Positions 2,561 to 50,481 of a stretch of DNA of 64,000 nucleotides are shown piece by piece. The first letter of the stretch is position 1, and every line of letters begins with the position of its first letter. Origin of the DNA: Gammaproteobacteria bacterium. GTDB taxonomy: Bacteria > Pseudomonadota > Gammaproteobacteria > UBA4575. The translations under genes were made by a program, and so were the position numbers. Location: contig OZ251487.1 of NCBI GenBank assembly GCA_965242685.1, forward strand, positions 865,199-929,198. Direction: 5' to 3'. The notes under the pieces were generated by a model. The model saw only the letters and a program-made list of their open reading frames with translations, was not told where the DNA came from and searched no databases.

Positions 2561-2573
2561 AATTAATCTGTAC

Positions 2574-3311: not shown

Positions 3312-3325
3312 TTGCGGATACAGCC

Positions 3326-3362: not shown

Positions 3363-3413
3363 TTCAAGTTGTTCAAGCTGTCTGGTTGCATAACTTGCAA
3401 CAAGGCTACTCCT

Positions 3414-19215: not shown

Positions 19216-20913
19216 TTATTTGACGTACATGTCAACAATGGTCTTTTCAACGACTTCGGCAGACAGGCCTACGGTTTCCGAAAGCGTCGGGTGTGGATGA
19301 ATTAACGCACCCATCTCACTGGCGGTACAACCCACTTTGATTGCCAGGGCCGCCTCCGATATCAAGTCGCCGGCATGGGTACCGACGATGCCCGCACCGA
19401 TTATTTTTTTGGTTTTTGCATCGTAAAGGGTTTTGGTCAGCCCTTCCTTCCTTCCCAAGCTCAACGCCCGTCCACTCGCCGCCCATGGAAACGTGCCTTT
19501 TTCATATTTGATATTCAATTCCCTAGCCTGATTTTCAGTGACTCCAACCCAGGCGACTTCGGGGTCGGTATATGCCACGGACGGGATTAGATTACCGTCA
19601 AACCGGCTCTCCATACCGGCTATAACCTCCGCAGCCACCTTGCCTTCATGGGCGGCCTTATGGGCAAGCATGGGTGGGCCAACCACGTCACCCACGGCAA
19701 ATATATGATCAACGTTTGTTCTCATCCGGTCATCCGTCGAAATAAATCCCCGTTCGTCAACATGAACGCCGGCCTTTCCGGCATTAATTAGCTTGCCGTT
19801 GGGCACCCTGCCGACGGCAACAAGCACTTGATCGAACACGTCTTTTTTCTGAGGTACGTCACCGTCAAAGGTTACAAATATACCGTTTAACGTTGACTCC
19901 ATGCGAGTGACCTTACTGCTTAGGTATATATTTTCGTATAGACCCGCAATGCGCTGATGCAACGGTTTGACCAGGTCTACATCTCCCCCGGGAATCAATG
20001 AATCTGCAAATTCAACGACGGTTACTTTCGCTCCCATCTCGTGGTACACCATCGCCATTTCTAGACCGATAATTCCTCCACCTACAATGAGTATACGCCC
20101 AGAAACATTATGTATTTCCAGTGCTTCGGTAGAGGTAAGTACACGGGGGTCATCATACGGAAACCCGGGTATTTTGATCGGCTCGGACCCCGCGGCAATT
20201 ACTGCCTGCTCAAATTCGACGGTCAAACTTCTACCTTCTACAACGTCAACCTTCAGGCAATGCGATGATGCAAACGTACCGGTTCCTTTGACGATTTTTA
20301 TGTTTCTTTTTTTGGCAAGGGTAGCCAAGCCACCAACGAGTTGGTGAATGACTTTGTTCTTCCAGGCACACAGCACGTCGTTATCAAGATGAAAAGACGA
20401 GAAATTCAATCCCATGCCAGACATCTCTCTCGCCTCGCTTATCACTTTTGCGGCATGGAGCAAAGACTTGGAAGGAATACAGCCGACGTTCAAACACACG
20501 CCACCCAGGCTGTCTTGGCGCTCTATTAACACTACTTCTTTACCCAGATCAGCGGCCCGGAATGCCGCGGAATAGCCGCCTGGCCCCGACCCTAGCACCA
20601 TGACCTGTGTCACTAAATCTCGGTAATCTTCAGACGGTGATATTTTATCCTTTACGGTGGTCTCGGCCCCATCTGCTCTTATCTTGAGTAACAGTGTCTC
20701 TACCGTTACAACGTCACCAACCTCCACGAAAACTTCACTCACCGCACCATTGCACGGCGACGCGACTTCTATGATTGCTTTTTCAGTTTCAATGGCAATT
20801 AATACATCGCCCGCCTTTACCTCATCACTGTCGGCGACCAGAATTTCCTTAATTACCGCGTTGTCAACGCCCTCTATATCATCCGGGGCCGTAATTTCAG
20901 AAATCCCATTCAT
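19216..20913 (-). CDS. lpd: dihydrolipoyl dehydrogenase (E3) with a fused N-terminal lipoyl domain
   Basis: N-terminal lipoyl-attachment context (IAIETEKAIIEVASP). Then FAD motif VMVLGSGPGGYSAAFRAADLG and redox-active disulfide GGVCLNVGCIPSK. Confidence 0.85.
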   Translation of the reverse strand: MNGISEITAPDDIEGVDNAVIKEILVADSDEVKAGDVLIAIETEKAIIEVASPCNGAVSEVFVEVGDVVTVETLLLKIRADGAETTVKDKISPSEDYRDLVTQVMVLGSGPGGYSAAFRAADLGKEVVLIERQDSLGGVCLNVGCIPSKSLLHAAKVISEAREMSGMGLNFSSFHLDNDVLCAWKNKVIHQLVGGLATLAKKRNIKIVKGTGTFASSHCLKVDVVEGRSLTVEFEQAVIAAGSEPIKIPGFPYDDPRVLTSTEALEIHNVSGRILIVGGGIIGLEMAMVYHEMGAKVTVVEFADSLIPGGDVDLVKPLHQRIAGLYENIYLSSKVTRMESTLNGIFVTFDGDVPQKKDVFDQVLVAVGRVPNGKLINAGKAGVHVDERGFISTDDRMRTNVDHIFAVGDVVGPPMLAHKAAHEGKVAAEVIAGMESRFDGNLIPSVAYTDPEVAWVGVTENQARELNIKYEKGTFPWAASGRALSLGRKEGLTKTLYDAKTKKIIGAGIVGTHAGDLISEAALAIKVGCTASEMGALIHPHPTLSETVGLSAEVVEKTIVDMYVK

Positions 20914-21168: not shown

Positions 21169-21726
21169 TTATTTTATATCCAGCTTACGACCATTGATTG
21201 ACGTAGAGCCTGCAACTTTTACATTCCTAGTCAACATATCCATTACCGGACATTGATTTTCGACGGCATCAACAAGCGCTTCTAATTTTTTCCTTGATGC
21301 CGAGCTTTTTATGTTGGTTTCATATTCAATTTCGGAAAAACCAGGATACGCCATACTATCACCTTCAATTCCCAACAAACCTCTGACGTCCAGATTTGCG
21401 GTCAGCTTTACGTCACATTCCTCCAAGGGTATGCCTCTGATTGATGCCAAGGCCGAGAACATAATTTGCTGACACGTTCCCAAGGCCACCAGCACCAACT
21501 CGACCGGGCTTGCCCCTAAATCCGTACCCCCAAATGCCGGAGGCTCATCAACTAACAGTTTGTGCCCTTCCTTACGAATTTGGGCCTTGCATAAAACACC
21601 ACCTTCCCAGTGCGAATGAACGCGGTATTTGAACTTTCCAAAGTCTGCATCTCCATTGGCTCTTTCGATAATATTGTTGATAGAGGCCCTTATATGCTCC
21701 AGGCTTTCGACATTTTCTTCACTCAT
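21169..21726 (-). CDS. OsmC/Ohr-family peroxiredoxin-like protein
   Basis: DEPPAFGGTDLGASPVELVLVALGTCQQI block characteristic of OsmC. Confidence 0.7.
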   Translation of the reverse strand: MSEENVESLEHIRASINNIIERANGDADFGKFKYRVHSHWEGGVLCKAQIRKEGHKLLVDEPPAFGGTDLGASPVELVLVALGTCQQIMFSALASIRGIPLEECDVKLTANLDVRGLLGIEGDSMAYPGFSEIEYETNIKSSASRKKLEALVDAVENQCPVMDMLTRNVKVAGSTSINGRKLDIK

Positions 21727-21976
21727 ATAACAATCACCTAACCGAACAATTCACGCGTGTACGCCCCCCGAATAGGCTCCATAAAAGTCTTAACTTCTGC
21801 ACTTCAATTATGCTATCTGCGACGAAAAGTATTTAGGTACTCGGAGTATATCGTTCTACATCGTGCACAGGCACTGCAAACTATCCTATCACCCTTTGCA
21901 GCAACCTATTGCGCACCTTGCACCATTTCACGCGAGGGATGGATGGGTACCACAGAAAGTTATAGTCTAATCACCC

Positions 21977-22285
21977 CTAATCGTCATAAAGATTGGTGTA
22001 AGTGTCCATACCGACTCCCCCGTGATACTTGGGAAATGCGGCCACATTATTAGTGATATGCTTTCTCGGCATGGTTTCCCAAAGCTTTTCTGCATCATCC
22101 ATTTCCAGAACTTCTATACTCTCGTTGTCGTCATCCTGAACAAAGTAATTTGAGTTCAATGCTCGAAACAGATACTTCTTGTTATCTTCGTCATACGCCA
22201 ATAACGTTGACGTATCTGTACGATACGTCTCTGTATCAACTACTATTTGTAGCGCCTTATACTTAGGAGTGCTTTCTTCCGTCAC
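21977..22285 (-). CDS. hypothetical acidic protein (102 aa), GTG start with a good SD (GGAGGTG)
   Basis: Intact ORF with SD. Highly acidic, no known motif. Confidence 0.4.
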   Translation of the reverse strand: MTEESTPKYKALQIVVDTETYRTDTSTLLAYDEDNKKYLFRALNSNYFVQDDDNESIEVLEMDDAEKLWETMPRKHITNNVAAFPKYHGGVGMDTYTNLYDD

Positions 22286-22342
22286 TTTTCACCTCCATTA
22301 AACACACTTCTAATCATACATTTGTGAAACAGTCTTGGGTCG

Positions 22343-22939
22343 CTAGCTGTTCTTCTTCAGCGATTTGCGATAAATTGTAGGCCCCAGCGCACCGACTATA
22401 CTGAGCCTGTCCGCCGGAATTATCCTGGCAAAATTAACAATTGATTTGGCCAGTTGGTCCAACCGTTCAAGGACATCTTCATTTATCAGGTCATAGTTCG
22501 AGTAGTGCTCATTGTTGGCATAAACGCCACCCGGTAATACATGGGCAAGAAAAAATCCCATTATAGGCTTCAGTTCATGCTCTATGGCCAGGTAGTGATG
22601 ATCACTGCCACCCGTCGCAATCAAACCGACAGGCTTACCCAAAAGCGCATCATTTGGAATAAGATCAAACATGTTTTTCAGCAAACCAGTATAGGCCCCC
22701 CTGTACATGGGTGTGCCGATTAAAAGAGCATCCGCTTCTACTATCTTATCAATGACTACTTTTGAGTCCCCTTCATACTTTGCGGGGTCCCTACCATCAC
22801 AAAACTGCACATCATATTCACTGATATTAAGGGCCTCTACGTCAATGGTATCGTCATATCGTTTAGCAAACTCCAATGCCTTCTCAATCGCAATTAAAGT
22901 CTTACGGCTCAACCCTCCCGATAAACCAAGTAATTTCAT
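22343..22939 (-). CDS. NAD(P)H-dependent FMN reductase (SsuE/MsuE/SfnF family)
   Basis: MKLLGLSGGLSRKTL...ADALLIGTPMYRGAYTGLLKNMFDL...LIATGGSDHHYLAIEH follows the SsuE-type flavodoxin-like reductase pattern. Confidence 0.8.
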   Translation of the reverse strand: MKLLGLSGGLSRKTLIAIEKALEFAKRYDDTIDVEALNISEYDVQFCDGRDPAKYEGDSKVVIDKIVEADALLIGTPMYRGAYTGLLKNMFDLIPNDALLGKPVGLIATGGSDHHYLAIEHELKPIMGFFLAHVLPGGVYANNEHYSNYDLINEDVLERLDQLAKSIVNFARIIPADRLSIVGALGPTIYRKSLKKNS

Positions 22940-23043
22940 TTTCTACCTCCTTAAACGATTGTAATTGTTATGAGATAAATCAATGAAAAAAAGAGCTATG
23001 GTAATAAAGACAGCCCATAACGGTTATATATAGCTATACTACC

Positions 23044-23082
23044 AAAAAACGCGACTGTCACCAAACGAGACAATCGCGTTCC
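23044..23082 (-). terminator. rho-independent terminator downstream of the LLM monooxygenase gene
   Basis: Minus-strand RNA aacgcgauugucucguuuggugacagucgcguuuuuu: a 10-bp stem followed by a U6 tract. Confidence 0.55.
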
Positions 23083-23179
23083 TTTGGTAAACGCTCAAGA
23101 GCGTATCCTTAACGTAACCTAGTAGGCTAAAAGAACAAGGCCTTATTCTACTTAGGCGTAAGGATCTCTTGCGTTATAC

Positions 23180-24352
23180 TTACGCCGACTTCTTCTTACC
23201 GACTACTCGGCCCTTGCGAAGGTCTTCCTCCTTCTCGCGAACTAACGGAATGACCTTTTCACCAAACTGCTTAAGTTCCCAGTTATAGTGCAGGTATCCA
23301 GTCAGAACAACCTTTATGCCGAGTTGCTTAAGCTCAATGATACGATCGGCGACAGACTCTGGCGTCCCGATAAGACCCGTTTTGAACCCATCGTTATATT
23401 GTACCAAATCCTCAAACGATGAATTCGCCCACATGCCTTCACCTTCTTTCGATGAACGACCGGCTTGTTTGACTGCTTCACCAAAGCCTTTTACGGCTTC
23501 AACGTCCGCATTCACGATAATATCTCGCAAAGTTTCCGTCGCTTCTTCCATCGTATCACGAACGATACAAAAGCCATTACAACCGAACTGAAGCTCGCCG
23601 GGGTCTCGTCCAGACTCTACGGCCGCTGCCCTGGAGTCGTCCATAATTTCCTTGAAACCTTTGTTGGTATTGCCGTTCATGAACAGTACGTCGGTAACAC
23701 GCCCGGCCATTCTCCTTGCATCTTTGGAATTTCCGCCTTGGAACACCACGATTCTATGCAGAGGCTTCGGCAGCATTGGCGCCCCGTCAATCTGGTAGAA
23801 ATCGCCATAGAACGTGAACTCATCTTCTGTCCACATACCTTTCATGATACGGATAAATTCCTCAGACCTGCGGTAGCGCTCCGTATGCTCAAGCCAAGGT
23901 AGCCCATAGCCCGTGTATTCGCCCTTGAACCAGCCACTTACAATATTGATGGAAGTTCGGCCCTGCGTGCAGCAGTCAAGAGAAGCCTGCATCTTCGCAA
24001 CGATTGCGGGATGCCACAAACCTGGATGGCACGCCGTAATGACTTCAATCTTCTTAGTGTGCTGGAGAATTACATTCGCAATCGTAAATGCCTCATGCTG
24101 ATGGTCTGCACCATAGCTGGCAAACCAACGGGTTTGAGCCAGTGCGGTTGCAAATCCGGAATCTTCGGCATCCTGTGCATATTTGATATTTGCCTCTGGC
24201 GTCCAATCAGTATCCATAGGCAAGGTCGTAATGACCAAGCCACCAGAGATATTGGGCACCCAATATGCAAATTCTATTTGATCTGAGTCTACCCAAGCCG
24301 ACGGCTTTAACGAGTTCTCAGAGTTTGGTAATAATCTTGGATATTTTGCCAT
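23180..24352 (-). CDS. LLM-class FMNH2-dependent monooxygenase, SfnG (dimethylsulfone monooxygenase)-like
   Basis: Luciferase-like TIM-barrel blocks (FAYWVPNISGGLV, SGWFKGEYTGYGLPWLEHTERYRRSEEFIR, FEDLVQYNDGFKTGLIGTP) resemble the remembered SfnG/SsuD subgroup. Adjacent SsuE-like reductase. Confidence 0.75.
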   Translation of the reverse strand: MAKYPRLLPNSENSLKPSAWVDSDQIEFAYWVPNISGGLVITTLPMDTDWTPEANIKYAQDAEDSGFATALAQTRWFASYGADHQHEAFTIANVILQHTKKIEVITACHPGLWHPAIVAKMQASLDCCTQGRTSINIVSGWFKGEYTGYGLPWLEHTERYRRSEEFIRIMKGMWTEDEFTFYGDFYQIDGAPMLPKPLHRIVVFQGGNSKDARRMAGRVTDVLFMNGNTNKGFKEIMDDSRAAAVESGRDPGELQFGCNGFCIVRDTMEEATETLRDIIVNADVEAVKGFGEAVKQAGRSSKEGEGMWANSSFEDLVQYNDGFKTGLIGTPESVADRIIELKQLGIKVVLTGYLHYNWELKQFGEKVIPLVREKEEDLRKGRVVGKKKSA

Positions 24353-24403
24353 ACATCACCTCAATATTATTTATTACGCTAATTATACAAATGTTTTTTT
24401 AAT

Positions 24404-24592
24404 TTATACCCATACCTTCTTTGGAGTCCCTATCCCTTTTTCCTGCAAAATCTCAATTGCCTTGTCAGTATCTCCATGGGCTTCAATAAGAGCGTCTCGG
24501 CAATCAATGGTGCCCGCGCGCGTCGCATTTCTAACCGTTTTGATCATTTGTGCCGTTACGTCCTTAAGCCCAAACTCATTATCTGTGCTCAT
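24404..24592 (-). CDS. 62-aa protein with an EF-Ts N-terminal-like (UBA-like) domain
   Basis: ITAQMIKTVRNATRAGTIDCRDALIEAHGDTDKAIEILQEKG resembles the EF-Ts N-terminal segment ([42 protein letters not shown]). Strong SD AAGGAGGAG 8 nt upstream of the ATG. Confidence 0.5.
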   Translation of the reverse strand: MSTDNEFGLKDVTAQMIKTVRNATRAGTIDCRDALIEAHGDTDKAIEILQEKGIGTPKKVWV

Positions 24593-24710
24593 CTAAAATA
24601 CTCCTCCTTAAATACACAACTATCATAAAGGTGTTTATTGTAAATACTCTCTCATCAAATTTCTAATACGGTTGCGACATATTTATCGTCGGTTGCCGTA
24701 CAGCATCGCA

Positions 24711-25949
24711 TCATTGCTTTTTAATCGGTATCACGTGACCCATCTTTTCCGCCTTCGTATGAAGATATCTTTGACGAAATTCATGGCCATGATCATGGCT
24801 CCCCGACGTCAACATAGGTATCCGCTTGACCAGCTTGATGCCGTAATTTTCCAACCAATTACACTTATTCGGATTATTGGTCATAAGCTGGACACGCTCA
24901 ATGTTGAGTGCATGCACAATATGTGCGGCAATGGCATAATCCCTATGATCGGCATCAAAACCTAATGCCCTGTTTGCCTGCACGGTATCAAACCCAGATT
25001 CCTGTAGGGAATATGCCTTGAGTTTACCGGATAAACCGATACCTCTACCTTCCTCTCTCATGTAAAGCACGACTCCCGTACCATGTTGCTCAATCATTTG
25101 CATTGCCACGTGTATCTGATCACCGCAATCACACCGTAGCGAGCCAAATACATCACCGGTAAGGCACTCAGAGTGAATCCTGAGTAGTACGTTGTCGGTT
25201 TGGCTCCATGAGCCTTTCACCAAGGCCAAGTGTTCTTCTTCAGTAAAGGTATCCCGAAATGCAATCAATTCAAACTCTCCCCAGTGAGTGGGTAGCTGGA
25301 CGGTTACAATGCGCTCCACCCTGGATTCATAACGAAGTTTATATTTGATCAAGTCTTGGATAGATATTATTTTCAGTAAAAACCGTTTCGACAGCTTGAA
25401 TAAGTCCGGGACCCTAGCCATAGAGCCGTCCAGCTTCATAATTTCGCACAAAACGCCTGCTTTTCGTAAACCTGCCAAGTCCATCAAGTCAACGGCTGCT
25501 TCGGTATGCCCATTTCTCTTAAAAATGCCGCCATCTGATGCCTTGAGAGGGAAAATATGACCGGGACGTGAAAAGTTACTTGCATCCACTTTTGAATCTG
25601 CCAATGCCTTTACCGTTTTGGCTCGGTCGGCGGCAGAAATGCCCGTTGTCGTCCCATGCTTGAAGTCTACCGAAACAGTAAAGGGGGTCGCATGCAAGGC
25701 ATTATTTTCATCTGGTGGCACCATCGGCTTCAAACCCAATTCATCCGCCCGTTGCTGATCAATTGCCGTACAAATCAAACCACGGCCATGCGTAGCCATA
25801 AAATTGATCATCTCAGGCGTACATTTATCCGCCGAACCGACGAAGTCACCCTCATTTTCACGGCTTTCGTCATCGACAACAATTACCAGCTTGCCCCGCC
25901 GTATATCTACCAAGGCCTCTGGAATTGAATTAAAGCGAGCCGTTTTCAT
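24711..25949 (-). CDS. ribBA: bifunctional 3,4-dihydroxy-2-butanone-4-phosphate synthase / GTP cyclohydrolase II
   Basis: N-terminal DHBP synthase blocks (VVVDDESRENEGDFVGSADKCTPEMINFMA). C-terminal GCH-II zinc site (CDCGDQ) and RALGFDADHRDY. Confidence 0.9.
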   Translation of the reverse strand: MKTARFNSIPEALVDIRRGKLVIVVDDESRENEGDFVGSADKCTPEMINFMATHGRGLICTAIDQQRADELGLKPMVPPDENNALHATPFTVSVDFKHGTTTGISAADRAKTVKALADSKVDASNFSRPGHIFPLKASDGGIFKRNGHTEAAVDLMDLAGLRKAGVLCEIMKLDGSMARVPDLFKLSKRFLLKIISIQDLIKYKLRYESRVERIVTVQLPTHWGEFELIAFRDTFTEEEHLALVKGSWSQTDNVLLRIHSECLTGDVFGSLRCDCGDQIHVAMQMIEQHGTGVVLYMREEGRGIGLSGKLKAYSLQESGFDTVQANRALGFDADHRDYAIAAHIVHALNIERVQLMTNNPNKCNWLENYGIKLVKRIPMLTSGSHDHGHEFRQRYLHTKAEKMGHVIPIKKQ

Positions 25950-25987
25950 AAACTACATGACATCAAATACTTTTATATAACAGTTAT

Positions 25988-26075
25988 AGCATTTTTTGTG
26001 CCAAGTTACAGAATACCCTATATCTTATTTTTCGAAAGACTCTGCTAAAGTTAAAGTTACTTTCAGCATAAAAGC
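25988..26075 (-). promoter_or_regulatory. sigma-54 (-24/-12) promoter module, copy 1, driving ribBA (minus strand)
   Basis: Minus strand reads TTGGCACAAAAAATGCT (GG-N10-GC with the correct -24/-12 spacing) about 40 bp upstream of the ribBA ATG. The ~88 bp block is ~85% identical to copy 2. Confidence 0.5.
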
Positions 26076-26119
26076 TGTTTCTAATCGAAACAAATATCCT
26101 TTCAGTGTAATAAAATTGT

Positions 26120-26181
26120 GAATCGTAAAAAGTAAGGCAGAAACAAAATAGCCAGACTCACTTCCCTGCTTATCTGGCTAC
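26120..26181 (-). terminator. putative intrinsic terminator downstream of the binding-protein gene
   Basis: Minus-strand hairpin agccagauaagcagggaagugagucuggcu (7-bp stem) followed by the U-rich auuuuguuucugccuuacuuuuu. Confidence 0.4.
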
Positions 26182-26251
26182 ATAATATCCTCTATTTATT
26201 TAGAGGAGCACATTCTTCGACTGAAACTTCAGTCATCTAATTTTCCTACGG

Positions 26252-27694
26252 TTACATCATCTCCCATGTACTTACGCCCTCGGGAACCGGCGGCTGATCG
26301 CCCATAAGCGTCCAATTATCGCGGTCATTCGGGTCGTTACAATCACGCTTTTCGATCTTGTTTTCTGTACGATAGATCTCAGCAAGGCTATACAACATCT
26401 CTGGAAGTGCCTGACTTCTGATCCAAGGCGTCACGATTTCCCATTGTCTCTTCTCAACGTCATACTTTTGAAACTTCGAGTTGTGACCACCAACGTGATC
26501 TTTACAAGTCACTTTCATGGGTGCAAGCAAGCCCGTAGCACCCAACTCTGCAATGCGTTCTTCATCAAAGTAGATATTTTCGAAGCCCCATCGCACCTGT
26601 TTGGCATTCAAAACCTTATTGCCCCAGCGCTTCTGTGCATTGATGATCGCTTCTACATGCATGATACCTGCCGTAATGCCTAAATTATGGTAGACGCTAC
26701 CCAGGCGACTTTTATCCTGCAAGTCCCCTTCACCTGCACCATAAACGACTTCAATGATTTCATTCTGAACATCCGTAAAAATTCCGGCCGGGTGAGTTGT
26801 AATGGCCTGATATCCATGCGCAGCCTTGCCGGCCGGCCTTACATCCTCATCCGAATTGCTCCAGATATTTCCAATCAGATGGTTAACCGGAAAACCGATG
26901 CGTGCCGCATTCTGAATCGCCACTGGATTCATCACGCCCCAACCTCGTAGAAACACGAAGTCCGGCTTGATCTTACGAATGTTAATCCACTGCGACCCTT
27001 GCTCGTTTCCTGGGTGGGGAATTTCAATCTTGTGGTGTTCAAAACCATATTCTCCCCCCATCGCATCCATGTACTCCAGTGCATTTCTCCCATACGGCGA
27101 GCCATGAAACAAAGTCACGACTTTTTTGCCAGACATTGCCTTTGCCAAGTCTTCATTACTCATGTTTGGATCTTCTCCCGTCACCAAATGAGCCATGAAC
27201 CTTACCGTTGCATTGTACTCGTCAGGCACTCCCATCCCTAGAGGAAACACGTATGGAAACACTTCGCCATCTATGGTTTCACTCTTTCCATGGTTGACTG
27301 TAATCATGGGGATTTTATCTATGCGCACCACTTCATTTAGTGCTTCGGCAATCCCCACACTCAAGGGGTCAAAGAAAAGTGCGCCGCCTTCCCTGTCCTT
27401 CATGCGCTTATAACACTCTACGCCTCTCTCAACCGCGTATTCTGTTTCGCATTCAGACCAGATCAGCTTTACACCGCCTACTCCGCCATCGCGCATATTC
27501 TTCAGCTTATAATAGTCTAGAATTCCGCCATAGTAGCCCGTACCACCAGCGGCATATGGGCCGACGCGATAACTAGGGATGGGAATGTACATTTCCCCCT
27601 CAGCGGAAAAACCGGGCAATGAGGTAAGCAGCAACGCAGCGGATGAAACCACCAGCACTACCGCCTTTTTCAGGTTGTTAAATTTAAGTTCCAT
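26252..27694 (-). CDS. periplasmic substrate-binding protein, type I PBP fold (LivK/amide-urea binding family), orphan
   Basis: Signal peptide. 480-aa protein with Leu/Ile/Val-binding-protein-like architecture. No permease or ATPase genes adjacent. Confidence 0.7.
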   Translation of the reverse strand: MELKFNNLKKAVVLVVSSAALLLTSLPGFSAEGEMYIPIPSYRVGPYAAGGTGYYGGILDYYKLKNMRDGGVGGVKLIWSECETEYAVERGVECYKRMKDREGGALFFDPLSVGIAEALNEVVRIDKIPMITVNHGKSETIDGEVFPYVFPLGMGVPDEYNATVRFMAHLVTGEDPNMSNEDLAKAMSGKKVVTLFHGSPYGRNALEYMDAMGGEYGFEHHKIEIPHPGNEQGSQWINIRKIKPDFVFLRGWGVMNPVAIQNAARIGFPVNHLIGNIWSNSDEDVRPAGKAAHGYQAITTHPAGIFTDVQNEIIEVVYGAGEGDLQDKSRLGSVYHNLGITAGIMHVEAIINAQKRWGNKVLNAKQVRWGFENIYFDEERIAELGATGLLAPMKVTCKDHVGGHNSKFQKYDVEKRQWEIVTPWIRSQALPEMLYSLAEIYRTENKIEKRDCNDPNDRDNWTLMGDQPPVPEGVSTWEMM

Positions 27695-27848
27695 TATCTA
27701 TCGCCTCCTCGAAAATTATTTTTATAAAGCTACTTCAGATAAACCACACATGCATATTTTCGTTTTAATAATGAAAGAAATGCAGACCGAACAAAATAAA
27801 GCACTCCATTCGGTTTCGCAACTATACACCATGTACAAATCCAAGGTA

Positions 27849-27933
27849 AGCATTTTTTGTGCCAAGTTACAGAATGCACAATATCTTGTTTTTCGGAAGA
27901 TTCTGCTAAAGTAAAGTTGCTTTGTAAAAACTG
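27849..27933 (-). promoter_or_regulatory. sigma-54 (-24/-12) promoter module, copy 2, driving the binding-protein gene
   Basis: Same TTGGCACAAAAAATGCT element and conserved upstream block as copy 1. About 155-nt leader to the binding-protein ATG. Confidence 0.5.
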
Positions 27934-28145
27934 AAGATATCCAGCATGATTCGTTTCAGCCGTTACAAATTGGCGAAGTAATCAAGCAAGTACCTTGATA
28001 AATGTAATGATGTTATGTTTCCAATTGATACACCGCATGCCCTGTTTAGAAACACCCTAACTAGGGCGGCGTTGGCTTTATCACTTTAAGCATAGTCCCT
28101 TTGCCGCAGCAACAACCTCGAAGCACGGTACTCAAACGGCTTTCT

Positions 28146-29546
28146 TTACCGACTCTCCATATGATGCCTGCCACGATGCAGCCCCCAGCGATTACGGCGC
28201 ATCCATAGTGTTTTTCTTCCTATTCCAAGTATTTTGGCAAGCTCGGTTTCACTGTACTGGTCCTGATATTGTTGAATCGTGCTTTTTGTATACTCATCAA
28301 TTGACATCGGCCGCTCATCCCCATGTCTGCCGTTATCATTTCTCAAGAGACTGTTGACATCATTGTTTTTTATATGCTTAAAGTCCTCAGTTTTCAGTTC
28401 ATCTCCCTTCGCCAATATGATTGCCCGCTCCACCGAATTTTTCAGTTCTCGAACGTTTCCGGGCCAGTCGTGTTCATTCAAAAAAGCAAGTAGTTCATCA
28501 TTGACTGGTTTAACCTTTCGCCCTAAATTGAGGTTATAGTGCTGTATAAAATAGTTTACAAGCAGTTCAATGTCACGGCTCCGTTGGCGTAAGGGGGGTA
28601 CTGAAATCTGAATGACATTCAGCCGATAAAACAGATCTTCCCGCATCCGACCAGCCGCCACTTCTTTATGCAAATCCCTGTTACAGGCAGCAACGATACG
28701 AACGTCTACCTCATAGGATTGCACGTCGCCGATTGGACGGACATGCCGGTCTTGAATAAATCTGAGCAACTTTACCTGCAACATCGGGGCCAGCTCGGAA
28801 ATTTCGTCGAGAAACAGCGTCCCGCCACTCGCCTCACGAATCAAGCCCTCTTTCCCCGCAACGGCACCGGTATATGCACCCCGGACGTGACCAAAGAACT
28901 CGGATTCTATCAGTTCCGCCGGAATCGCCCCGCAGTTGACCGGCACAAACGGCCCTCTACTCCGCGCACTCATTTTATGAATCTCAAGTGCCACCAATTC
29001 TTTACCTGTTCCGCTTTCCCCCTGAATCAACACCGTTGCATCACTCGGCCCTACTCTATGGAGAAGATTTTTCAATTCTTTTACGGAGTGGCTCTCACCA
29101 ATAATTTCCTGTTTCCGTTTGTTGTTAAGTGCGCTACGCAAATTACGCTTCAACAAGCGATTTTCCTTTTGAATACTCCTTTCATTAATTGCCCGCGTGA
29201 CGGCGTGGACAAGATATTTATCGGAAAAAGGCTTGAGTATGTAATCGGCGGCACCCAAACGTAATGCCTGCACCGCACATTTTATTGACGTATAGTGCGT
29301 CATGATGATGCGCGGACATCCCAATCCCTCCATTCTTATTTTTCTGAGAAGATCAAGCCCGGTAGACCCCCGTAGCTTAAGATCGCTAAGCACCAGATCA
29401 AAATGCTCGGACAACAGTTTCGGCATGGCTTCGGATACCCTGCGCACGTGGGTTACACTCATCCCTTCATGCTCAAGGAGCCGTCTGACCGATTCGCCAA
29501 ACTCAACGTCGTGCTCTACGACCAAAACTCTATGCGTACCTTGCAT
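28146..29546 (-). CDS. sigma-54-dependent NtrC-family response regulator (receiver + AAA+ + HTH), no cognate kinase adjacent
   Basis: Receiver domain with a DLVLSDLKL phospho-acceptor context. AAA+ sigma-54 interaction domain (GESGTGKE, GAFTGA-like GAYTGA). C-terminal Fis-type HTH. Confidence 0.85.
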   Translation of the reverse strand: MQGTHRVLVVEHDVEFGESVRRLLEHEGMSVTHVRRVSEAMPKLLSEHFDLVLSDLKLRGSTGLDLLRKIRMEGLGCPRIIMTHYTSIKCAVQALRLGAADYILKPFSDKYLVHAVTRAINERSIQKENRLLKRNLRSALNNKRKQEIIGESHSVKELKNLLHRVGPSDATVLIQGESGTGKELVALEIHKMSARSRGPFVPVNCGAIPAELIESEFFGHVRGAYTGAVAGKEGLIREASGGTLFLDEISELAPMLQVKLLRFIQDRHVRPIGDVQSYEVDVRIVAACNRDLHKEVAAGRMREDLFYRLNVIQISVPPLRQRSRDIELLVNYFIQHYNLNLGRKVKPVNDELLAFLNEHDWPGNVRELKNSVERAIILAKGDELKTEDFKHIKNNDVNSLLRNDNGRHGDERPMSIDEYTKSTIQQYQDQYSETELAKILGIGRKTLWMRRNRWGLHRGRHHMESR

Positions 29547-29767
29547 TCTGTCCCCCGCAAACCTGTCAGTAGTTCCAGTGTTTGATGATATCCGATAGGT
29601 ATCGTGACCAAAAGTAAGTATAATAGAGAATGATATAATAGCTTACTTGTATCAAATTGACCAGAGTGTTTTATTCTTATTGTATCCAAATGAAACGTAT
29701 AGTAAATTATTTGGACAAGGTAGCTGTAAAACATAAAAGAACAACAAACAAGTAAAGGGCATAACCG

Positions 29768-30247
29768 ATGAATTCCAATCAAATAAGCAATGATGAATTC
29801 AAACGCGCCATGGGCTGTTTCCCTAGTGGCGTCACAATTGTGACAACGATCGGCAAAGACAATCAGAAGTACGGATTTACGGCCTCTGCATTTTCATCCC
29901 TTTCTCTCTCGCCTCCCTTGGTACTGGTTTGCTTGGCGAATAATGCCGAATGCTTTGAGTCTTTCAACCGCGGCAAGCAATTTGCCGTCAATATTATCGG
30001 TTCAAAGCATGAAGAACTGGCCTTCAAGTTTGCCACCAAAGGCTGCGATAAGTTTGGGGGGGATGAGTTCGTAGCCGGTGAAAATGGCCTGCCAGTGCTT
30101 GAGGATGCCCCGGTATCCATGGAGTGTGCAACCCGATACACTTACCCTGGCGGCGACCACGTTATCCTCGTGGGCGAAGTCAAGTGCATAAAAGTCAACG
30201 ATACCCTCCCAACCATTTGGCATCAGGGAAAATTCCACCACCTTTAG
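29768..30247 (+). CDS. flavin reductase-domain protein (HpaC/NADH:FMN oxidoreductase family)
   Basis: FKRAMGCFPSGVTIVTT...GFTASAFSSLSLSPPLVLVCL is the flavin-reductase-like FMN-binding split-barrel signature. Confidence 0.8.
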   Translation: MNSNQISNDEFKRAMGCFPSGVTIVTTIGKDNQKYGFTASAFSSLSLSPPLVLVCLANNAECFESFNRGKQFAVNIIGSKHEELAFKFATKGCDKFGGDEFVAGENGLPVLEDAPVSMECATRYTYPGGDHVILVGEVKCIKVNDTLPTIWHQGKFHHL

Positions 30248-30298: not shown

Positions 30299-30547
30299 TT
30301 ACCTCGGTTTTTCTTTCACCTCGGAGATAAAATTCATGAATGCGGGTTCCAACAACTCATGGTCCCTCATCCTAGACTTCTTCCTCAACAAATCCTGAAC
30401 GTCTATTTCCAACGTATCATTGTGCCGATAAACCTTGATCTCACCCGAATGAACAAAGCGATAAATTTTCGTTATCGGAATACCGGATATCTTGGCAGCC
30501 TTTGCAATACTTACAAACTGTATCAACGCCATTTTACCGCCCTTCAA
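30299..30547 (-). CDS. small excisionase/MerR-like HTH DNA-binding protein
   Basis: MALIQFVSIAKAAKISGIPITKIYRFVHSGEIKVYRHN resembles HTH_17/excisionase-family DNA-binding domains. Confidence 0.45.
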   Translation of the reverse strand: MKGGKMALIQFVSIAKAAKISGIPITKIYRFVHSGEIKVYRHNDTLEIDVQDLLRKKSRMRDHELLEPAFMNFISEVKEKPR

Positions 30548-30759: not shown

Positions 30760-31344
30760 TTACCTTTTCCTACGCACTGCAAACGCCTGCCGATAAAACT
30801 GACTTGCACCGTTTACGCCGATATGCCTGACATCGTCCGCGATCTTCTCGAGTACCGGTAAAGCCTTCGCATATACACTTGACTCGCCACCCACGAGTAT
30901 CATTTGTACGCCCTCTGATTCCCCTTTACCTTCGTTGATGACTACCGCGTCCAGAAAAGAGATTTCCCTCTCCGCCAACTGCTCGGACAATTCCTGCAAA
31001 AATTCCGGCGACACCGTGCTCATATCCATCATCACGCCGTCCGTCCGAATGAATCGGGCCATGCCCTCCTCGCCAAAAAACACATTTTCCAACTGCGGGG
31101 CGTCGGACATGACGGTAATAACGATTGAACAGGCCCTGACAAGAGACGCGGCAGAGTGATGGAAACGTGCACCGAGGCATACAGGGTTGTCGCGTTGCCG
31201 TTGCGGGACATTTACGGAAAATCCGGCGTTCAAAAGCTGTCCTACCATCAAATTTGCCAAACTCCCTTCTCCCAGAACCCCTATCTCCACGTCCTTCGTA
31301 TCGGGGCTTGCGTCTCTATCCACCCAATGCCTCAACCATCCCAA
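30760..31344 (-). CDS. truncated HIBADH/6PGDH-type Rossmann-domain protein with a degenerate GxGxxG (GEGSLA): pseudoenzyme or gene remnant
   Basis: Aligns to the N-terminal NAD-binding domain of 3-hydroxyisobutyrate-dehydrogenase-like enzymes (VMSDAPQLENVFFGEEG; DMSTVSPE...FLDAVV...GESEG; ILVGGE). It is only 194 aa, lacking the C-terminal helical domain, and the glycine motif is mutated. Confidence 0.4.
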   Translation of the reverse strand: MGWLRHWVDRDASPDTKDVEIGVLGEGSLANLMVGQLLNAGFSVNVPQRQRDNPVCLGARFHHSAASLVRACSIVITVMSDAPQLENVFFGEEGMARFIRTDGVMMDMSTVSPEFLQELSEQLAEREISFLDAVVINEGKGESEGVQMILVGGESSVYAKALPVLEKIADDVRHIGVNGASQFYRQAFAVRRKR

Positions 31345-31701: not shown

Positions 31702-32940
31702 CTAAAACGGAACCCGTACCGAAAGGGTTCCGAAAACCCCGAACGCATCCGCATAGCTCAGCTCGGCCGGGAAATGCGTAACGTTGTCTCCGTAACGCTG
31801 TCCGGCTCTCGCATAGCGTACCTTTGGTACGTGCGACAAATATTCGATCCCCACGCCAAGACGAAAGACCACGTCGTCAAAATACACAGCCCGCAACGAC
31901 GTTTTCAAGCGAAGCGTAGCGGCGGCACGCGAATCATCGACTTTCAGATCGGTCGGCAAGTCTATCATTGCCGACGACAGTACGGTTCTTTGATGCCCCT
32001 TGTATTCGGCATCAAGATAGTAGACACCGATGTCACCTTCGGCGGCAAACGCCCAACGTCGTTTGAACGGAACATCAAGGTTGGCGCCGACAAGCAACCC
32101 ATAATACGAGGCTCGCAGGCGCTCATTCAACGTCATGTAATTTTCATCTGGCGTCCTATTCGTTGCCTCATACGAGAAAATATCGGTACGCTGATACAAG
32201 CGTTTAAAACTCGGCCCGGCGAAAAACGACATCTTGCGCGCCGTCCCCCGCCAGTCGCCCCGAACGCCACCAATGACGTCAACACCTCCGAAGTCCACCT
32301 CCCTTCTCGTATGTATACGGATCGTGTCTCCCCAGGCAAAATTGGGCGTATGTGCAAGGGGTCTTCCGTCTATGGCGCCGATCCAGCCGGAAAACTTGAG
32401 GCCCCGAGTCGTTCTGATCGCCTCAAGCAAGCCGCTCAACCTATCCGCATCGCCGAATATTTCAGCCCTTCGCGCCTCTCTCTGTGCCGCCGTTAAGGCC
32501 ATCAATTCCGTCAGCGCGATCCCGAACTGCTCCGCTTCCAGCCTATCCCATAACTCACTCGTTCGTTGATATTCGTTGAAATGCCTGGCGTCGTGCGAAG
32601 TAAAAAAACCGCGCGCCTCGGTGAACACGTTGCGCCCGAAGGCGTCGTACGTACCACCCACCGCCAGTTTGAGTAGCGGGCCGCCGCGAGAAGAGTCATA
32701 GTGGTCGAGCAAATCTGTCAGCTTCTCATCGGAATCCGTCTCGATAAACGGGCTTGATTCTGGCAGGTCAAGAAAAAAGGCGCCGACTTCGGCGCGCAGG
32801 TAAGTGCCGCTAGTTTCGTTCATCGTCGCCCCCCGCATCTGAGAATAGGCGGGTAACGCCACCACCAAAACGAGACATGCGACCAGCTTCCCGGAAATCG
32901 TGCTCAAGTTCAAACCGTTCATCGGATCCTCATGCGACAA
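31702..32940 (-). CDS. putative outer-membrane protein (signal peptide, C-terminal ...LSVRVPF)
   Basis: N-terminal signal sequence and a terminal aromatic residue typical of OM beta-barrels. The middle region looks helical, so the assignment is tentative. Confidence 0.4.
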   Translation of the reverse strand: MSHEDPMNGLNLSTISGKLVACLVLVVALPAYSQMRGATMNETSGTYLRAEVGAFFLDLPESSPFIETDSDEKLTDLLDHYDSSRGGPLLKLAVGGTYDAFGRNVFTEARGFFTSHDARHFNEYQRTSELWDRLEAEQFGIALTELMALTAAQREARRAEIFGDADRLSGLLEAIRTTRGLKFSGWIGAIDGRPLAHTPNFAWGDTIRIHTRREVDFGGVDVIGGVRGDWRGTARKMSFFAGPSFKRLYQRTDIFSYEATNRTPDENYMTLNERLRASYYGLLVGANLDVPFKRRWAFAAEGDIGVYYLDAEYKGHQRTVLSSAMIDLPTDLKVDDSRAAATLRLKTSLRAVYFDDVVFRLGVGIEYLSHVPKVRYARAGQRYGDNVTHFPAELSYADAFGVFGTLSVRVPF

Positions 32941-33770: not shown

Positions 33771-34115
33771 TCACGATTTCTTGCCGCTGCCCGGATTGTA
33801 GACGGGGGCGGGAAAATGGGCGACGTTTTCGCCGGCCTCCGAAATTTTCGCGACGCCCTGTTTGTCGACTTCATCCACTCTGATCACGGCGTGCACGGGC
33901 ACAAAAAAACGCTTCACCCGGTCAAATTCGGTTTTGAGCTTTTCTTCGCCCGGATCAATGACGACGCTGTTGCGCTCGTTGAAGGTCAGGCTCTCGATGG
34001 TAACAAAGCCGTACAGATCGGATTGGTATACCTGTCGCGCATACACTTCGTATACTTTGTCTTGGTTGTAAAAGGTCACTTTGTAAAGGCTTTTCTGCAC
34101 GGTACGTTCAGACAT
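33771..34115 (-). CDS. DUF1820-family protein
   Basis: [38 protein letters not shown] matches the DUF1820 N-terminus as remembered. Confidence 0.5.
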
Positions 34116-35460
34116 CGGAGGCACCCATGTTTTTGATGATTTCTTCGCCGAATCCAGAAGTGCTTACCAGCGTTGCCCCGGGCAGCAGGCGTTCGAGGTC
34201 TTCCTGCACTTCTTTTGAGGTGCCGGGCCGCCGCCCCTTGGCACGAAACCCCGCCCGGGCGCGGGCCAGGTCATAGGTAACGGTCTTCGAGGCAATGGCG
34301 CCCGATATGCCGGTAATGATCAGGTCCGCCGCTTCGCACCAACCCAGGTGACGCAGCATCATTTCCGCCGACAAGATGATGGAGCCGGGATTGACACGGT
34401 TTTTCCCGGCATGCGCCGGCGCGGTGCCGTGCGTGGCCTCAAAACAAGCGACGTCGTCCGAGACGTTCGCCCCCGGGGCGATACCGATTCCACCCACTTG
34501 CGCGGCCAGAGCATCGGAAATGTAGTCGCCATTCAGGTTCAACGTTGCAATGACGTCGTAGTCTTCGGGTTTGAGCAGGATCTGTTGTAAAAAGTTGTCG
34601 GCCAACACGTCCTTGATCAGGATTTCCCTGCCATTGCCGGGATGGATGATCCTACACCACGGGCCTTCGCCGATAATTTCGGCGTTAAACTCCTGTACGG
34701 CCAGATCATAGCCCCAGTTGCGGAACGCGCCTTCGGTAAATTTCATAATGTTTCCCTTGTGTACCAGGGATACCGAACGACGATCATTGTCTATGGCGTA
34801 TTGAATGGCCTTGCGTATCAGGCGCACCGAACCTTCCTTCGAAACCGGTTTAATGCCGATCCCCGAGGTCTCCGGAAAGCGTATCTTGGTGATGCGCATG
34901 TCATCGCGTAAAAATTTGATGACTTTTTTGGCGCCTTCACTCTGGGCCTCCCATTCAATACCCGCGTAAATGTCTTCGGTGTTTTCACGAAAGATCACCA
35001 TGTCGGTCGTTGCGGAATCTTTCAGTGGCGTGAGCGTTCCCGAAAAATAGCGAATCGGACGCACACAGGCAAACAGATCCAGCTTCTGCCGAATGGCCAC
35101 GTTCAATGAACGCATCCCCTCGCCTATCGGCGTTGCCAGCGGCCCCTTGATGGACACCACGTATTTTTTCATCACGTCAAGCGTTTCTTCGGGCAAAAAG
35201 TCCGTCTGGCCATATAAACGGGAGGCCTTCACGCCGGCGTAAATCTCCATCCAACTGATACGCCGTTCTTTGTTGTAAGCCTTCTTGACAGCCGCGGTCA
35301 CGACGCGCCTCATCACCGGCGTAACGTCTATGCCGATGCCATCGCCTTCTATGAACGGAATGACGGGAACGTCGGGGACGTCCAGGGTCTTGTCCTGATT
35401 CAGCCTGATCGCCTCTCCTTCCGCAGGGACTTGAACGTGTTCATAGGGTTGGTTTGCCAT
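34108..35460 (-). CDS. icd: NADP-dependent isocitrate dehydrogenase (homodimeric type, with a ~20-aa C-terminal insertion)
   Basis: Near-colinear with E. coli Icd ([41 protein letters not shown]). Confidence 0.9.
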
Positions 35461-35582
35461 GTGTACCTCAAATGTATTCGAACTTTAGGGAATCATAATG
35501 GATGCACGGCCGGGGGCACACTAGTAAGTATTCGCTTGCCGGACGTTACACGTCAAGAGTTGATCAGCCAAAAATGACTCGT

Positions 35583-36887
35583 CTATCCGGTAGCGGTCTT
35601 GGAATCGAACTGCTGTTCTTCGGTTGACCCCGACAGTGCCGTAACGGATGATTGTCCACCCTGAATTGTGGTCGTCACTTCATCAAAATAGCCGGCGCCC
35701 ACTTCTTGTTGGTGGCTGACAAAGGTGTACCCTCGCTTGCGCGCATCGAACTCCCGCTCCTGTACCATATCCACGTAAGCCGTCATCCCTTCCTCTATAT
35801 ATTTCTTGCCCAAACTAAACATGTTGTACCACATGCTGTGAATACCCGCCAAAGTAATGAATTGGTACTTATATCCCATGGCACCCAGCTCACGCTGGAA
35901 CTTGGCAATCGTGGCGTCGTCCAGGTTTTTCTTCCAATTAAAGGAAGGTGAACAGTTATAAGCAAGGAGCTGTTCAGGGTGTTCCTTGCGCACACCTTCG
36001 GCAAACTTCTTAGCAAAATCCAGGTCCGGCGTGCCCGTTTCGCACCAAATCAAATCGGCGTATTCGGCATAGGCAACGCCACGCGAGATCGCTTGTTCCA
36101 ATCCGTTTCTGACGCGAAAAAAGCCCTCGGAAGTACGCTCTCCCATCAGAAACGGTTTATCGCGTTCATCATGGTCGGAGGTGATCAAGTTGGCGGCCTC
36201 GGCGTCGGTTCGCCCCAGCACCACGGTCGGCACCCCCATGACGTCGGCGGCAAGACGGGCGGCATTCAGTTTTTGACAGGCTTCCTGCGTGGGAACAAGC
36301 ACCTTGCCCCCCATGTGGCCGCACTTTTTTACGGCGGCCAGCTGATCTTCAAAGTGTACGCCCGCAGCCCCCGCAACAATCATGTTCTTCATCAGCTCGA
36401 AGGCATTGAGAACGCCGCCAAAACCGGCTTCCGCATCGGCGACTATGGGTACAAAGTAATCCCTGTCGCCTTCGCCGTGCAGCCACTGAATTTCATCGGC
36501 GCGTTTGAAGGCGTTATTGATTCTGCGCACCACGGTGGGTACGGAATCATACGCATAGAGCGACTGATCCGGATACATGGTTTCACTGGTGTTGGCATCC
36601 GCCGCAACTTGCCAACCGGACAGGTATATGGCCTTGATGCCGGCCTTTACCTGCTGAACGGCTTGACCGCCCGTGAGCGTACCCAAACAGTTGATATAGT
36701 CTTCTTCATTGACAAGTTGCCAAAGCTTCTCCGCACCGCGTTTCGCAAGGGTGTGCTCTATCTGCAACGAGCCGCGAAGACGCACCACGTCTTCAGCCGT
36801 ATAGTCACGCCGGACATCTTTCCAGCGAGGATTATTCTTCCATTCCTCATCAAGTTCCTTTATCTGTTCAGTTCTGCTCTTGCTCAC
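35583..36887 (-). CDS. aceA: isocitrate lyase
   Basis: ICL signature KKCGHMGGK and the SGWQ block. 434 aa. Confidence 0.9.
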
Positions 36888-39787: not shown

Positions 39788-39848
39788 ACCGTTCTTATGC
39801 CCGCTATTTATTTGCCTACACCCGCCGGATGGTCAAACAGAAATGACC

Positions 39849-40985: not shown

Positions 40986-40987
40986 GT

Positions 40988-41935: not shown

Positions 41936-41976
41936 TTGTCTGCTCTCCTCTTCACGCTTTGTCCGAGTTGCATGGC

Positions 41977-42765: not shown

Positions 42766-42779
42766 CCGGTTTCGTCAAC

Positions 42780-50458: not shown

Positions 50459-50481
50459 GATATTTAAGCAGGCGGAAAAGG

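Follow-up and report, generated by a model that had tools for sequence, protein, structure and literature searches.

We analysed a 64,000-nucleotide stretch of DNA (the window; contig OZ251487.1, positions 865,199 to 929,198) from an uncultured marine gammaproteobacterium, and in particular nine open reading frames (ORFs) at 21169-30247 that include sfnG, the gene for a dimethylsulfone (DMSO2) monooxygenase. Eight of the ORFs lie on the minus strand. In the direction of transcription they encode an enhancer-binding response regulator, EBP466 (28146-29546); a periplasmic binding protein of the Pfam family Peripla_BP_6, SBP480 (26252-27694); RibBA, with the DHBP synthase and GTP cyclohydrolase II domains both matched at full length in Pfam (24711-25949); a 62-aa protein, tsfN62, resembling the N-terminal (UBA-like) domain of elongation factor Ts (EF-Ts; 24404-24592); SfnG (23180-24352); an MsuE/SsuE-like NAD(P)H-dependent flavin mononucleotide (FMN) reductase (22343-22939; Pfam FMN_red, 98 bits); a 102-aa acidic protein, acid102, that matches nothing in Pfam or NCBIfam (21977-22285); and an OsmC-family protein, a putative hydroperoxide reductase (21169-21726; Pfam OsmC, 70 bits). 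The ninth gene, flr159 (29768-30247, plus strand), is divergent from the regulator gene and encodes a flavin reductase of the HpaC/RutF type (Pfam Flavin_Reduct, 128 bits). Each ORF is where a first-pass annotation had placed it, and Pfam and NCBIfam returned the families guessed there, including the FMN reductase, RibBA, the HpaC-type reductase and the sigma-54 enhancer-binding response regulator. The stretch from the flavin reductase through OsmC to lpd is syntenic in ~15 related genomes, and the gene arrangement is therefore not due to chance. The close relatives are metagenome-assembled genomes (MAGs) of uncultured marine Gammaproteobacteria or Thiotrichales with chromosomes of 1.8-2.8 Mb. 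Read together, the genes probably form a regulated system for the uptake of DMSO2 and the cleavage of its C-S bond. Searches for absent genes covered the 64-kb window, and the negative results given below refer to it.

The protein encoded by sfnG is a luciferase-like monooxygenase (LLM; Bac_luciferase family) that scored 555.1 bits against the SfnG equivalog profile of NCBIfam, TIGR04021 (cut-off 383), its residues 26-375 aligning with profile positions 1-349 of 350, that is, over the full length. Aligned over 358 residues with the crystal structure of P. fluorescens SfnG (PDB 8t0u), it shows 53% identity. Eight residues that contact DMSO2 (W11, R55, Y60, W121, F267, W285, Y296 and N297) show strict conservation among SfnG enzymes (PMC11588060), and all eight are kept here as W31, R75, Y80, W141, F290, W308, Y319 and N320. 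In the FMN phosphate motif (H136, Y140, S188, S189), H156, Y160 and S209 are retained and S188 is replaced by N208. Both sequence motifs quoted for the LLM in the first-pass annotation, FAYWVPN and SGWFKGEY, are present. The alkanesulfonate monooxygenase, RutA, NtaA/DmoA and F420 families gave far lower scores (NCBIfam); the protein thus does not group with the nitrilotriacetate (NtaA) or F420 enzymes, an outcome named beforehand as one that would speak against SfnG. By these comparisons the assignment as SfnG is secure, and the predicted reaction is the conversion of DMSO2 to methanesulfinate and formaldehyde with reduced FMN (FMNH2) and O2. The chemistry reported for SfnG proceeds through an N5-(hydro)peroxyflavin, and an abortive flavin-N5-oxide was trapped in vitro (PMC11588060).

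Two sigma-54-type -24/-12 elements of identical sequence (TGGCACAAAAAATGC) were found on the minus strand, one directly upstream of ribBA (25989-26003) and one directly upstream of the binding-protein gene (27850-27864). Each lies in a 67-nt block (27849-27915 at the binding-protein gene); the blocks are 90% identical between the two sites, and the duplication occurs only in this strain. The ribBA promoter is kept as TGGCAYAAnnnATGC in eight relatives. Indeed, in 10.3 kb of sequence upstream of ribBA and of the binding-protein gene in 13 relatives, we counted 13 sigma-54-type motifs, where the frequency in the remainder of the loci predicts 0.70 (18-fold; Poisson P 8e-13). As a separate observation, TGGTGTATAGTTGC at 27818-27831 (minus strand), downstream of the duplicated promoter block, resembles the TGGTAC-N5-TTGC promoter of the close relatives' binding-protein genes with a spacer one base shorter; it may be what is left of a decayed ancestral promoter, whose place a copy of that of ribBA would have taken in this strain.

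The promoters are accompanied by candidate enhancers. An exact inverted repeat, GTTTCGATTAGAAAC, lies ~75-100 nt upstream of the ribBA promoter (26077-26091), and an exact GTTTC-N5-GAAAC repeat occupies the equivalent position upstream of ribBA in L007, L009, L012, L014, L018, L025 and L027. Nine of the 12 exact repeats in the relatives fall in the regions upstream of ribBA or of the binding-protein gene; the other three are within or close to the intergenic region of the regulator and reductase genes (L009, position 154; L012, 4721; L018, 4495), that of L009 standing upstream of the regulator gene. In the window, the binding-protein promoter has a candidate bipartite enhancer, GTTTCTAAAC ... 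GTATCAATTGGAAAC (28017-28053), of a type that L003-L006 and L024 also have upstream of their binding-protein genes, and an enhancer-like repeat with one mismatch, GTATCCAAATGAAAC, lies between the regulator and flr159 genes (29682-29696). Upstream of sfnG in the betaproteobacterium Glaciimonas immobilis we found two tandem exact GTTTC-N5-GAAAC repeats together with TGGCACGAACTATGC. The sigma-54 control proposed in the first-pass annotation is thus supported by the two promoters and by the conservation of an enhancer repeat. In the mechanism that we propose, EBP466 would bind repeats of the GTTTC-N5-GAAAC type and activate the sigma-54 promoters of the binding-protein gene and of ribBA-tsfN62-sfnG, and possibly also act on the intergenic region between its own gene and flr159.

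Transcript ends are suggested by two terminator-like hairpins on the minus strand, one after the binding-protein gene (26140-26181; -17 kcal/mol, z -2.4, followed by UAUUUUGUUU) and a strong one after sfnG (23044-23082; -23.1 kcal/mol, z -6.1, followed by UUUUUU). The transcripts predicted from the sigma-54 promoters are, accordingly with these limits, (i) the binding-protein gene and (ii) ribBA-tsfN62-sfnG. We also noted a palindrome, ATAACNGTTAT / TATAACNGTTATA, at 23016-23028 and 25976-25988; its two copies (against 0.08 expected, commoner than chance in the window) lie upstream of the FMN reductase gene and just downstream of the ribBA -12 element. The palindrome is absent from all relatives, and we did not build on it.

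EBP466 consists of a receiver domain, a sigma-54 AAA+ domain with a GAYTGA loop and a helix-turn-helix (HTH) domain (Pfam Response_reg, Sigma54_activat and AAA_lid_14), and the GAYTGA loop is invariant in its orthologues. Its best NCBIfam matches are AtoC, NtrC and ZraR, all under their cut-offs. The protein is 43% identical, in the AAA+ part only, to a 371-aa SfnR-like regulator of Paraburkholderia (L084) that has no receiver domain, and 50% identical to an orthologue in Glaciimonas. The preceding gene in Glaciimonas overlaps that of the regulator and encodes a 345-aa histidine kinase (only HisKA and HATPase_c in Pfam), and the Glaciimonas receiver has the canonical residues (DDD/D/T/K). In EBP466, E11-H12-D13 stands in place of the DDD acid pocket, with D55, T83 and K105 present; the relatives have drifted to DND or DNN, with D55E in L009 and a change of K to R in three. 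No histidine kinase is adjacent to the regulator gene, as the first-pass annotation had pointed out, and none was found anywhere in the window (tblastn with the Glaciimonas kinase; Pfam on the large ORFs). Since the Glaciimonas orthologue has an adjacent kinase, EBP466 appears to have become an orphan by secondary loss. The degenerate acid pocket and the loss of the neighbouring kinase suggest that its control may come from a kinase encoded elsewhere or may be independent of phosphorylation.

SBP480 has a signal-peptide-like N-terminus. Its closest solved relative is PDB 4ru0 (E 6e-110), an uncharacterised structural-genomics protein, and it is 51% identical to the binding protein inside an ATP-binding cassette (ABC) operon of the Paraburkholderia sfn cluster (L084). 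The order of genes in that cluster is acyl-CoA-dehydrogenase-like, SfnR-like regulator, acyl-CoA-dehydrogenase-like, FMN_red, SfnG (54% identical to that of the window), AMP-binding protein, LivG, LivH, LivM, binding protein and LivF. The first-pass annotation had described the LivK-type binding protein as lacking an adjacent permease; none is indeed adjacent, but an orthologous LIV/Urt-type importer that itself has no binding protein lies 11 kb away (38951-44666, minus strand; Pfam, NCBIfam). The importer comprises an AMP-binding protein (42780-44666), LivG (41977-42765; 57% identical to its Paraburkholderia sfn-cluster counterpart), LivH (40988-41935; 54%), LivM (39849-40985; 45%) and LivF (38951-39787; 58%), all on the minus strand and in the same order as in Paraburkholderia, with the slot for the binding protein between LivM and LivF empty. 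SBP480, two BPD_transp_2 permeases and two ATPases would thus make up a complete LIV set across the window, and the importer is likely to be the partner of SBP480. The simplest reading of this arrangement has the binding-protein gene leaving the transporter operon and coming under pathway-specific sigma-54 control. Judging from its context, DMSO2 is a candidate ligand of SBP480, which would capture it in the periplasm and hand it to an apparently separately expressed importer. In L085, a gene for an SBP480 homologue is followed only by that of a LivF-like ATPase, 68% identical to LivF of the window.

The relatives carry a second binding protein (L081-L083, 10001-11347), of 448 aa and 59% identical to SBP480, whose gene is solitary and has a DUF4156 gene and clpB on its two sides; neither a sigma-54 motif nor an enhancer repeat was found upstream of it (L081).

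In this scheme the reductases would supply FMNH2 to SfnG. The best NCBIfam match of the FMN reductase is MsuE (TIGR03566, 135 bits, under the cut-off of 212), and its gene comes after sfnG in most loci. The second reductase, flr159, is syntenic in the relatives and falls under all NCBIfam equivalog cut-offs (RutF, 91 bits). ribBA is the first gene behind its sigma-54 promoter, and Rfam detected no FMN riboswitch in the window (only tRNA and signal recognition particle (SRP) RNA). Synthesis of the riboflavin precursors would, thus, rise with the pathway and escape limitation by feedback, and RibBA would raise the flavin supply when the pathway is on. The module also comes with ribBA or ribA in Glaciimonas, Solirubrobacteraceae, Pseudonocardia and L086. 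The N5-peroxyflavin chemistry, together with the trapped flavin-N5-oxide, points to a need for recycling or replacing flavin, which is a plausible reason for the presence of a second, RutF-like reductase and of RibBA; that flr159 recycles flavin-N5-oxide is a conjecture. The OsmC protein, which may remove peroxide arising from uncoupled flavin turnover, has both catalytic cysteines (in GTCQQ and NQCPV) and NCBIfam subfamily scores that are all under the cut-offs; an OsmC gene also comes after sfnG and the reductase gene in several Balneolaceae loci. Adjoining the OsmC gene is one for a dihydrolipoyl dehydrogenase with an N-terminal lipoyl domain (19216-20913, minus strand), with SRP RNA and dnaX downstream but without neighbouring E1/E2 genes. 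Lipoyl-dependent peroxidases occur among the OsmC/Ohr proteins, and one idea, no firmer than that, is that the dehydrogenase provides reductant to a lipoyl-dependent OsmC as a redox pair.

We then compared the locus with more distant ones. Its core, comprising ribBA (or ribA), an HpaC-type reductase, FMN_red, tsfN62, SfnG and acid102, recurs with SfnGs 73-80% identical in Glaciimonas, Solirubrobacteraceae, Pseudonocardia, Acidimicrobiales and assemblies of 70% GC (L086-L089), so that the co-occurrence spans Gamma- and Betaproteobacteria and Actinomycetota. SfnG homologues of 70% identity or less (Nocardioidaceae L026, Balneolaceae, other Pseudonocardia copies) are without either small gene. 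A 5.8-kb contig binned as Winogradskyella (Bacteroidota; L010) also carries tsfN62-sfnG-reductase-acid102-osmC; its SfnG is ~90% identical to those of gammaproteobacterial MAGs, and a mistake in binning is a more probable explanation than a transfer.

Of its partners, this SfnG clade keeps acid102 most faithfully: acid102 follows SfnG in 13 of the 13 loci compared, all with SfnGs at least 73% identical. Among 1.84 billion proteins its representative clusters number only 33. Its AlphaFold2 (AF2) model (pLDDT 80) is a six-stranded beta-meander with a helix and has no fold match in the PDB; PDB sequence matches to designed PPR repeats were dismissed as spurious. tsfN62 matches the EF-Ts profile TIGR00116 (45 bits) at the N-terminus only, over positions 3-49 of 293. 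It also matches the N-terminus of EF-Ts in the PDB (E 1e-6), aligning to residues 2-45 of E. coli EF-Ts, and its AF2 model is a three-helix bundle. As in the UBA/TS-N domain of EF-Ts, part of the conserved motif is kept (TRAGTIDCRDAL versus TGAGMMDCKKAL). However, EF-Ts has ~280 aa, whereas tsfN62 has 62, is encoded in a flavin-reductase/SfnG module and lacks the core and dimerisation domains; it thus cannot be a nucleotide-exchange factor.

The small proteins are tied to their neighbours by two fusions. In two Pseudonocardia genomes (L021/L022) a single ORF encodes Flavin_Reduct followed by a C-terminal tsfN62 domain, and in L086-L089 acid102 is followed by a tsfN62 domain in a 159-aa protein (P0317) encoded directly upstream of sfnG. 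A third apparent fusion, a tsfN-SfnG single ORF in the long-read MAG L019, has its two tsfN matches in different frames and is a probable frameshift artefact; we set it aside. On the strength of the two independent fusions, we propose for tsfN62 the role of a docking domain and for acid102 that of a partner protein; together they would assemble the flavin reductase(s) with SfnG.

Linkage of this kind bears on whether the genes belong together at all. If the ties between them were loose, the small ORFs and the genes for RibBA, OsmC and the binding protein would be housekeeping or unrelated genes that happen to be neighbours of sfnG in this lineage. Such a view could appeal to the housekeeping genes that flank the region (lpd, dnaX, recR and SRP RNA), to the hairpin between sfnG and the downstream genes, and to OsmC and lpd, whose linkage to the module is confined to the gammaproteobacterial lineage (for OsmC, also some Balneolaceae). 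We consider it highly improbable, because the SfnG clade has ribBA, both reductases, tsfN62 and acid102 with it in unrelated phyla with different flanks, two independent fusions join three members of the module, and sigma-54 promoters and enhancer repeats are common to ribBA and the binding-protein gene.

In several loci of Beta- and Gammaproteobacteria and Actinomycetota (L016, L017, L021, L022, L023, L079 and L086-L089), the SfnG module is flanked by an AmiS/UreI-type channel and/or a sulfite-oxidase-type molybdoenzyme (Oxidored_molyb and Mo-co_dimer). The channel, of a type for small polar solutes, takes the uptake role in these distant loci, which fits a small uncharged substrate. The molybdoenzyme is beside the module in L017, L021, L022 and L086-L089, and genes for electron-transfer flavoprotein (ETF) alpha/beta and ETF-quinone oxidoreductase (ETF-QO) are near it in L016/L017. 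If the molybdoenzyme oxidised methanesulfinate or sulfite, it would replace the MsuC/MsuD logic.

The SfnGs of the module type also share an N-terminal extension of ~20 aa that is missing from the Paraburkholderia SfnG. The extension raises a further alternative, namely that the LLM of this clade uses a different small sulfone or sulfoxide, or that accessory proteins alter its chemistry, for example towards cleavage of the second methyl group. Besides the extension, the clade has tsfN62 and acid102 as obligate neighbours, all of which canonical SfnG lacks; a sulfite-oxidase-type enzyme is often adjacent to the module; the window contains neither msuC nor msuD, and the neighbours inspected at several module loci did not include them either; and SfnG of P. 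fluorescens was also assayed on methylethylsulfone and diethylsulfone (PMC11588060). We nevertheless think such a change of substrate or chemistry unlikely: the DMSO2 contacts of the crystal structure are all identical, the equivalog score is far over the cut-off, and a second LLM or acyl-CoA-dehydrogenase-like gene does occur near the module in L020 and L023.

A bolder proposal, which we put forward tentatively and regard as rather doubtful, keeps DMSO2 as the substrate and makes tsfN62 and acid102 dedicated subunits of a horizontally mobile, extended-SfnG machine with an MsuC/MsuD-independent DMSO2 route. If this were true, the SfnG with its N-terminal extension would be held to the HpaC-type reductase and/or acid102 through the UBA-like domain, and the complex would channel reduced flavin or recycle damaged flavin, such as flavin-N5-oxide, with RibBA replacing what is lost. 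Together with the importer (or the AmiS/UreI channel) and, elsewhere, the sulfite-oxidase-type enzyme, it would let diverse bacteria, among them abundant uncultured marine Gammaproteobacteria, consume DMSO2 without MsuC/MsuD.

The first-pass annotation had linked the locus to a methanethiol oxidase cluster, and that cluster is real. MtoX (3414-4799) passes its equivalog profile (NF052453, 728 bits; cut-off 650; Pfam SBP56), and downstream of mtoX in the cluster (561-4799), likewise on the minus strand, are genes for SCO1/SenC (2574-3311; Pfam SCO1-SenC), a MauG-like di-haem protein (1223-2560; Pfam CCP_MauG) and AhpC/TSA (561-1235; Pfam AhpC-TSA). The further suggestion that the organism runs both routes derived from dimethylsulfide (DMS) exceeds the evidence: MtoX and SfnG are both encoded, but an enzyme that would form DMSO2 or methanethiol from DMS is absent from the window.

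The pathway is also incomplete in the other direction. The window has no msuC, msuD or ssuD: a tblastn search found no second LLM in it, and its other large ORFs contained no LLM or acyl-CoA-dehydrogenase domain; the route from methanesulfinate to usable sulfite is, therefore, incomplete there. There is no sulfite oxidase in the window either. The purpose of the pathway could be dissimilatory, with DMSO2 serving as a source of one-carbon (C1) units or energy and its sulfur disposed of as sulfate, rather than the scavenging under sulfate starvation seen in Pseudomonas. We treat a dissimilatory role as a real if lesser possibility. The control here is of the response-regulator type, unlike the SfnR type of the Paraburkholderia sfn cluster; in Pseudomonas, sfnR is reportedly regulated by CysB. 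Seawater is rich in sulfate, the window has MtoX and isocitrate lyase as well, and the sulfite-oxidase-type molybdoenzyme and ETF/ETF-QO beside the module in distant loci provide a hint, though only a hint, in the same direction. On the other hand, the genes beside the module in the window include none for a sulfite oxidase, formaldehyde oxidation or C1 assimilation, and marine bacteria with small genomes may lack sulfate assimilation and need reduced sulfur. Sulfur assimilation, moreover, is the only setting in which SfnG has been characterised to date (PMC11588060, PMC13352529).

Returning to the reading of the locus as a regulated DMSO2 uptake and cleavage system, several observations weigh against it. 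The U-tract hairpin separates sfnG from the genes for the FMN reductase, acid102 and OsmC, for which no promoter was identified in the window, and these genes may thus be transcribed separately or by read-through. rpoN was not seen in the window, which, as described above, also lacks a histidine kinase and the msuC, msuD and ssuD genes. No sigma-54 motif or enhancer repeat was found upstream of the importer; the evidence pairing it with SBP480 consists of orthology and gene order only, and the 59%-identical paralogous binding protein may use the same importer. The literature on 4ru0 or on a DMSO2 transporter yielded nothing relevant, and no ligand for any member of the SBP480 family. Finally, the roles given to tsfN62, acid102, RibBA and OsmC are drawn from linkage and fusion.

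Much of the system has precedents. Sigma-54 control of sfnG is known from Pseudomonas (Endoh et al. 2003, 2005), and the locus shares with the sfn/msu genes of that genus (SfnG with MsuE/SfnF and the activator SfnR; Endoh et al. 2003/2005, Wicht 2016, PMC11588060) the same DMSO2 pocket, a partner NAD(P)H:FMN reductase and sigma-54 activation by a dedicated enhancer-binding protein. The LIV-type ABC transporter is likewise a feature of Pseudomonas-type sfn loci, as in Paraburkholderia L084, and 'predicted ABC transporters' have been reported for the sfn region of P. putida (PMC8234197). With SfnG, FMN reductases, sigma-54 control and a LIV-type transporter all known from such loci, the locus is not a new kind of system. 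The differences, however, are several. EBP466 has a receiver domain and the SfnR-like protein of L084 has none; nor is SfnR of Pseudomonas known to have one. Near sfnG in the window there are no msuC, msuD or sfnB-type acyl-CoA-dehydrogenase genes. The binding-protein gene stands apart from the permease operon, behind a sigma-54 promoter of its own, ribBA heads the sfnG transcript, a second, HpaC-type reductase is present, and tsfN62, acid102 and the N-terminal extension of SfnG are added. From these comparisons, the locus is best described as a distinct, widely transferred variant of sfn.

Its parts can be compared with other families as well. EBP466 shares the order of receiver, AAA+ (GAYTGA) and HTH domains with regulators of the NtrC/AtoC type, and its Glaciimonas orthologue is paired with a kinase as they are; unlike them, the EBP466 lineage has no adjacent kinase and a degenerate acid pocket. 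The combination of an LLM using N5-(hydro)peroxyflavin chemistry (PMC11588060) with a reductase of the Flavin_Reduct family recalls RutA/RutF, but the substrate of SfnG is a sulfone and not a pyrimidine.

The variant is marked by the receiver-type regulator with its candidate enhancer, the split binding protein, the co-transcribed ribBA and the two small proteins tied in by fusions. DMSO2 is a product of DMS oxidation, and its marine microbial sinks are poorly defined; a small-genome lineage of marine Gammaproteobacteria carries a complete-looking locus for its sensing, uptake and cleavage alongside a methanethiol oxidase. The LIV-type transporter of sfn clusters gains a candidate ligand, DMSO2, and a solved homologue, 4ru0. 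The two small-protein families gain a firm context from their conserved linkage and two independent fusions, which could bear on the handover of reduced flavin in two-component flavin monooxygenases. The enhancer-binding protein, the GTTTC-N5-GAAAC repeat and the sigma-54 promoters together make up a proposed circuit in which riboflavin synthesis, with ribBA behind a pathway-specific sigma-54 promoter and no FMN riboswitch in the window, would come under pathway control.

Several other features of the window were noted. Next to flr159 lie an 82-aa ORF without a family match (30299-30547, minus strand) and a 194-aa NAD_binding_2 ORF (30760-31344, minus strand) that looks like the truncated N-terminal half of a hydroxyacid dehydrogenase, both syntenic with the locus in the relatives, followed by a 412-aa ORF for which Pfam gives no match (31702-32940, minus strand). 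Adjacent genes for isocitrate dehydrogenase and isocitrate lyase (34108-36887, minus strand) may bear on C1/C2 metabolism. Just past the ABC importer is a type I restriction-modification system (HsdR, HsdS and HsdM; 45511-50491, minus strand), with a 169-aa ORF between the two, and a DNA methylase fused to a T5orf172/MUG113 domain is encoded at 59363-60646 (minus strand). Finally, a 346-aa ORF (55097-56137, plus strand) ends in a C4 zinc finger of the DksA type (CKSCG...CIDCK), and ahead of the finger are ~200 residues of histone-H1/AlgP-like KKAATP/QRKATTPKK repeats; the repeats are encoded by a tandem DNA array based on an 18-nt unit (55122-55710), in a kilobase with an AT skew of 0.53.

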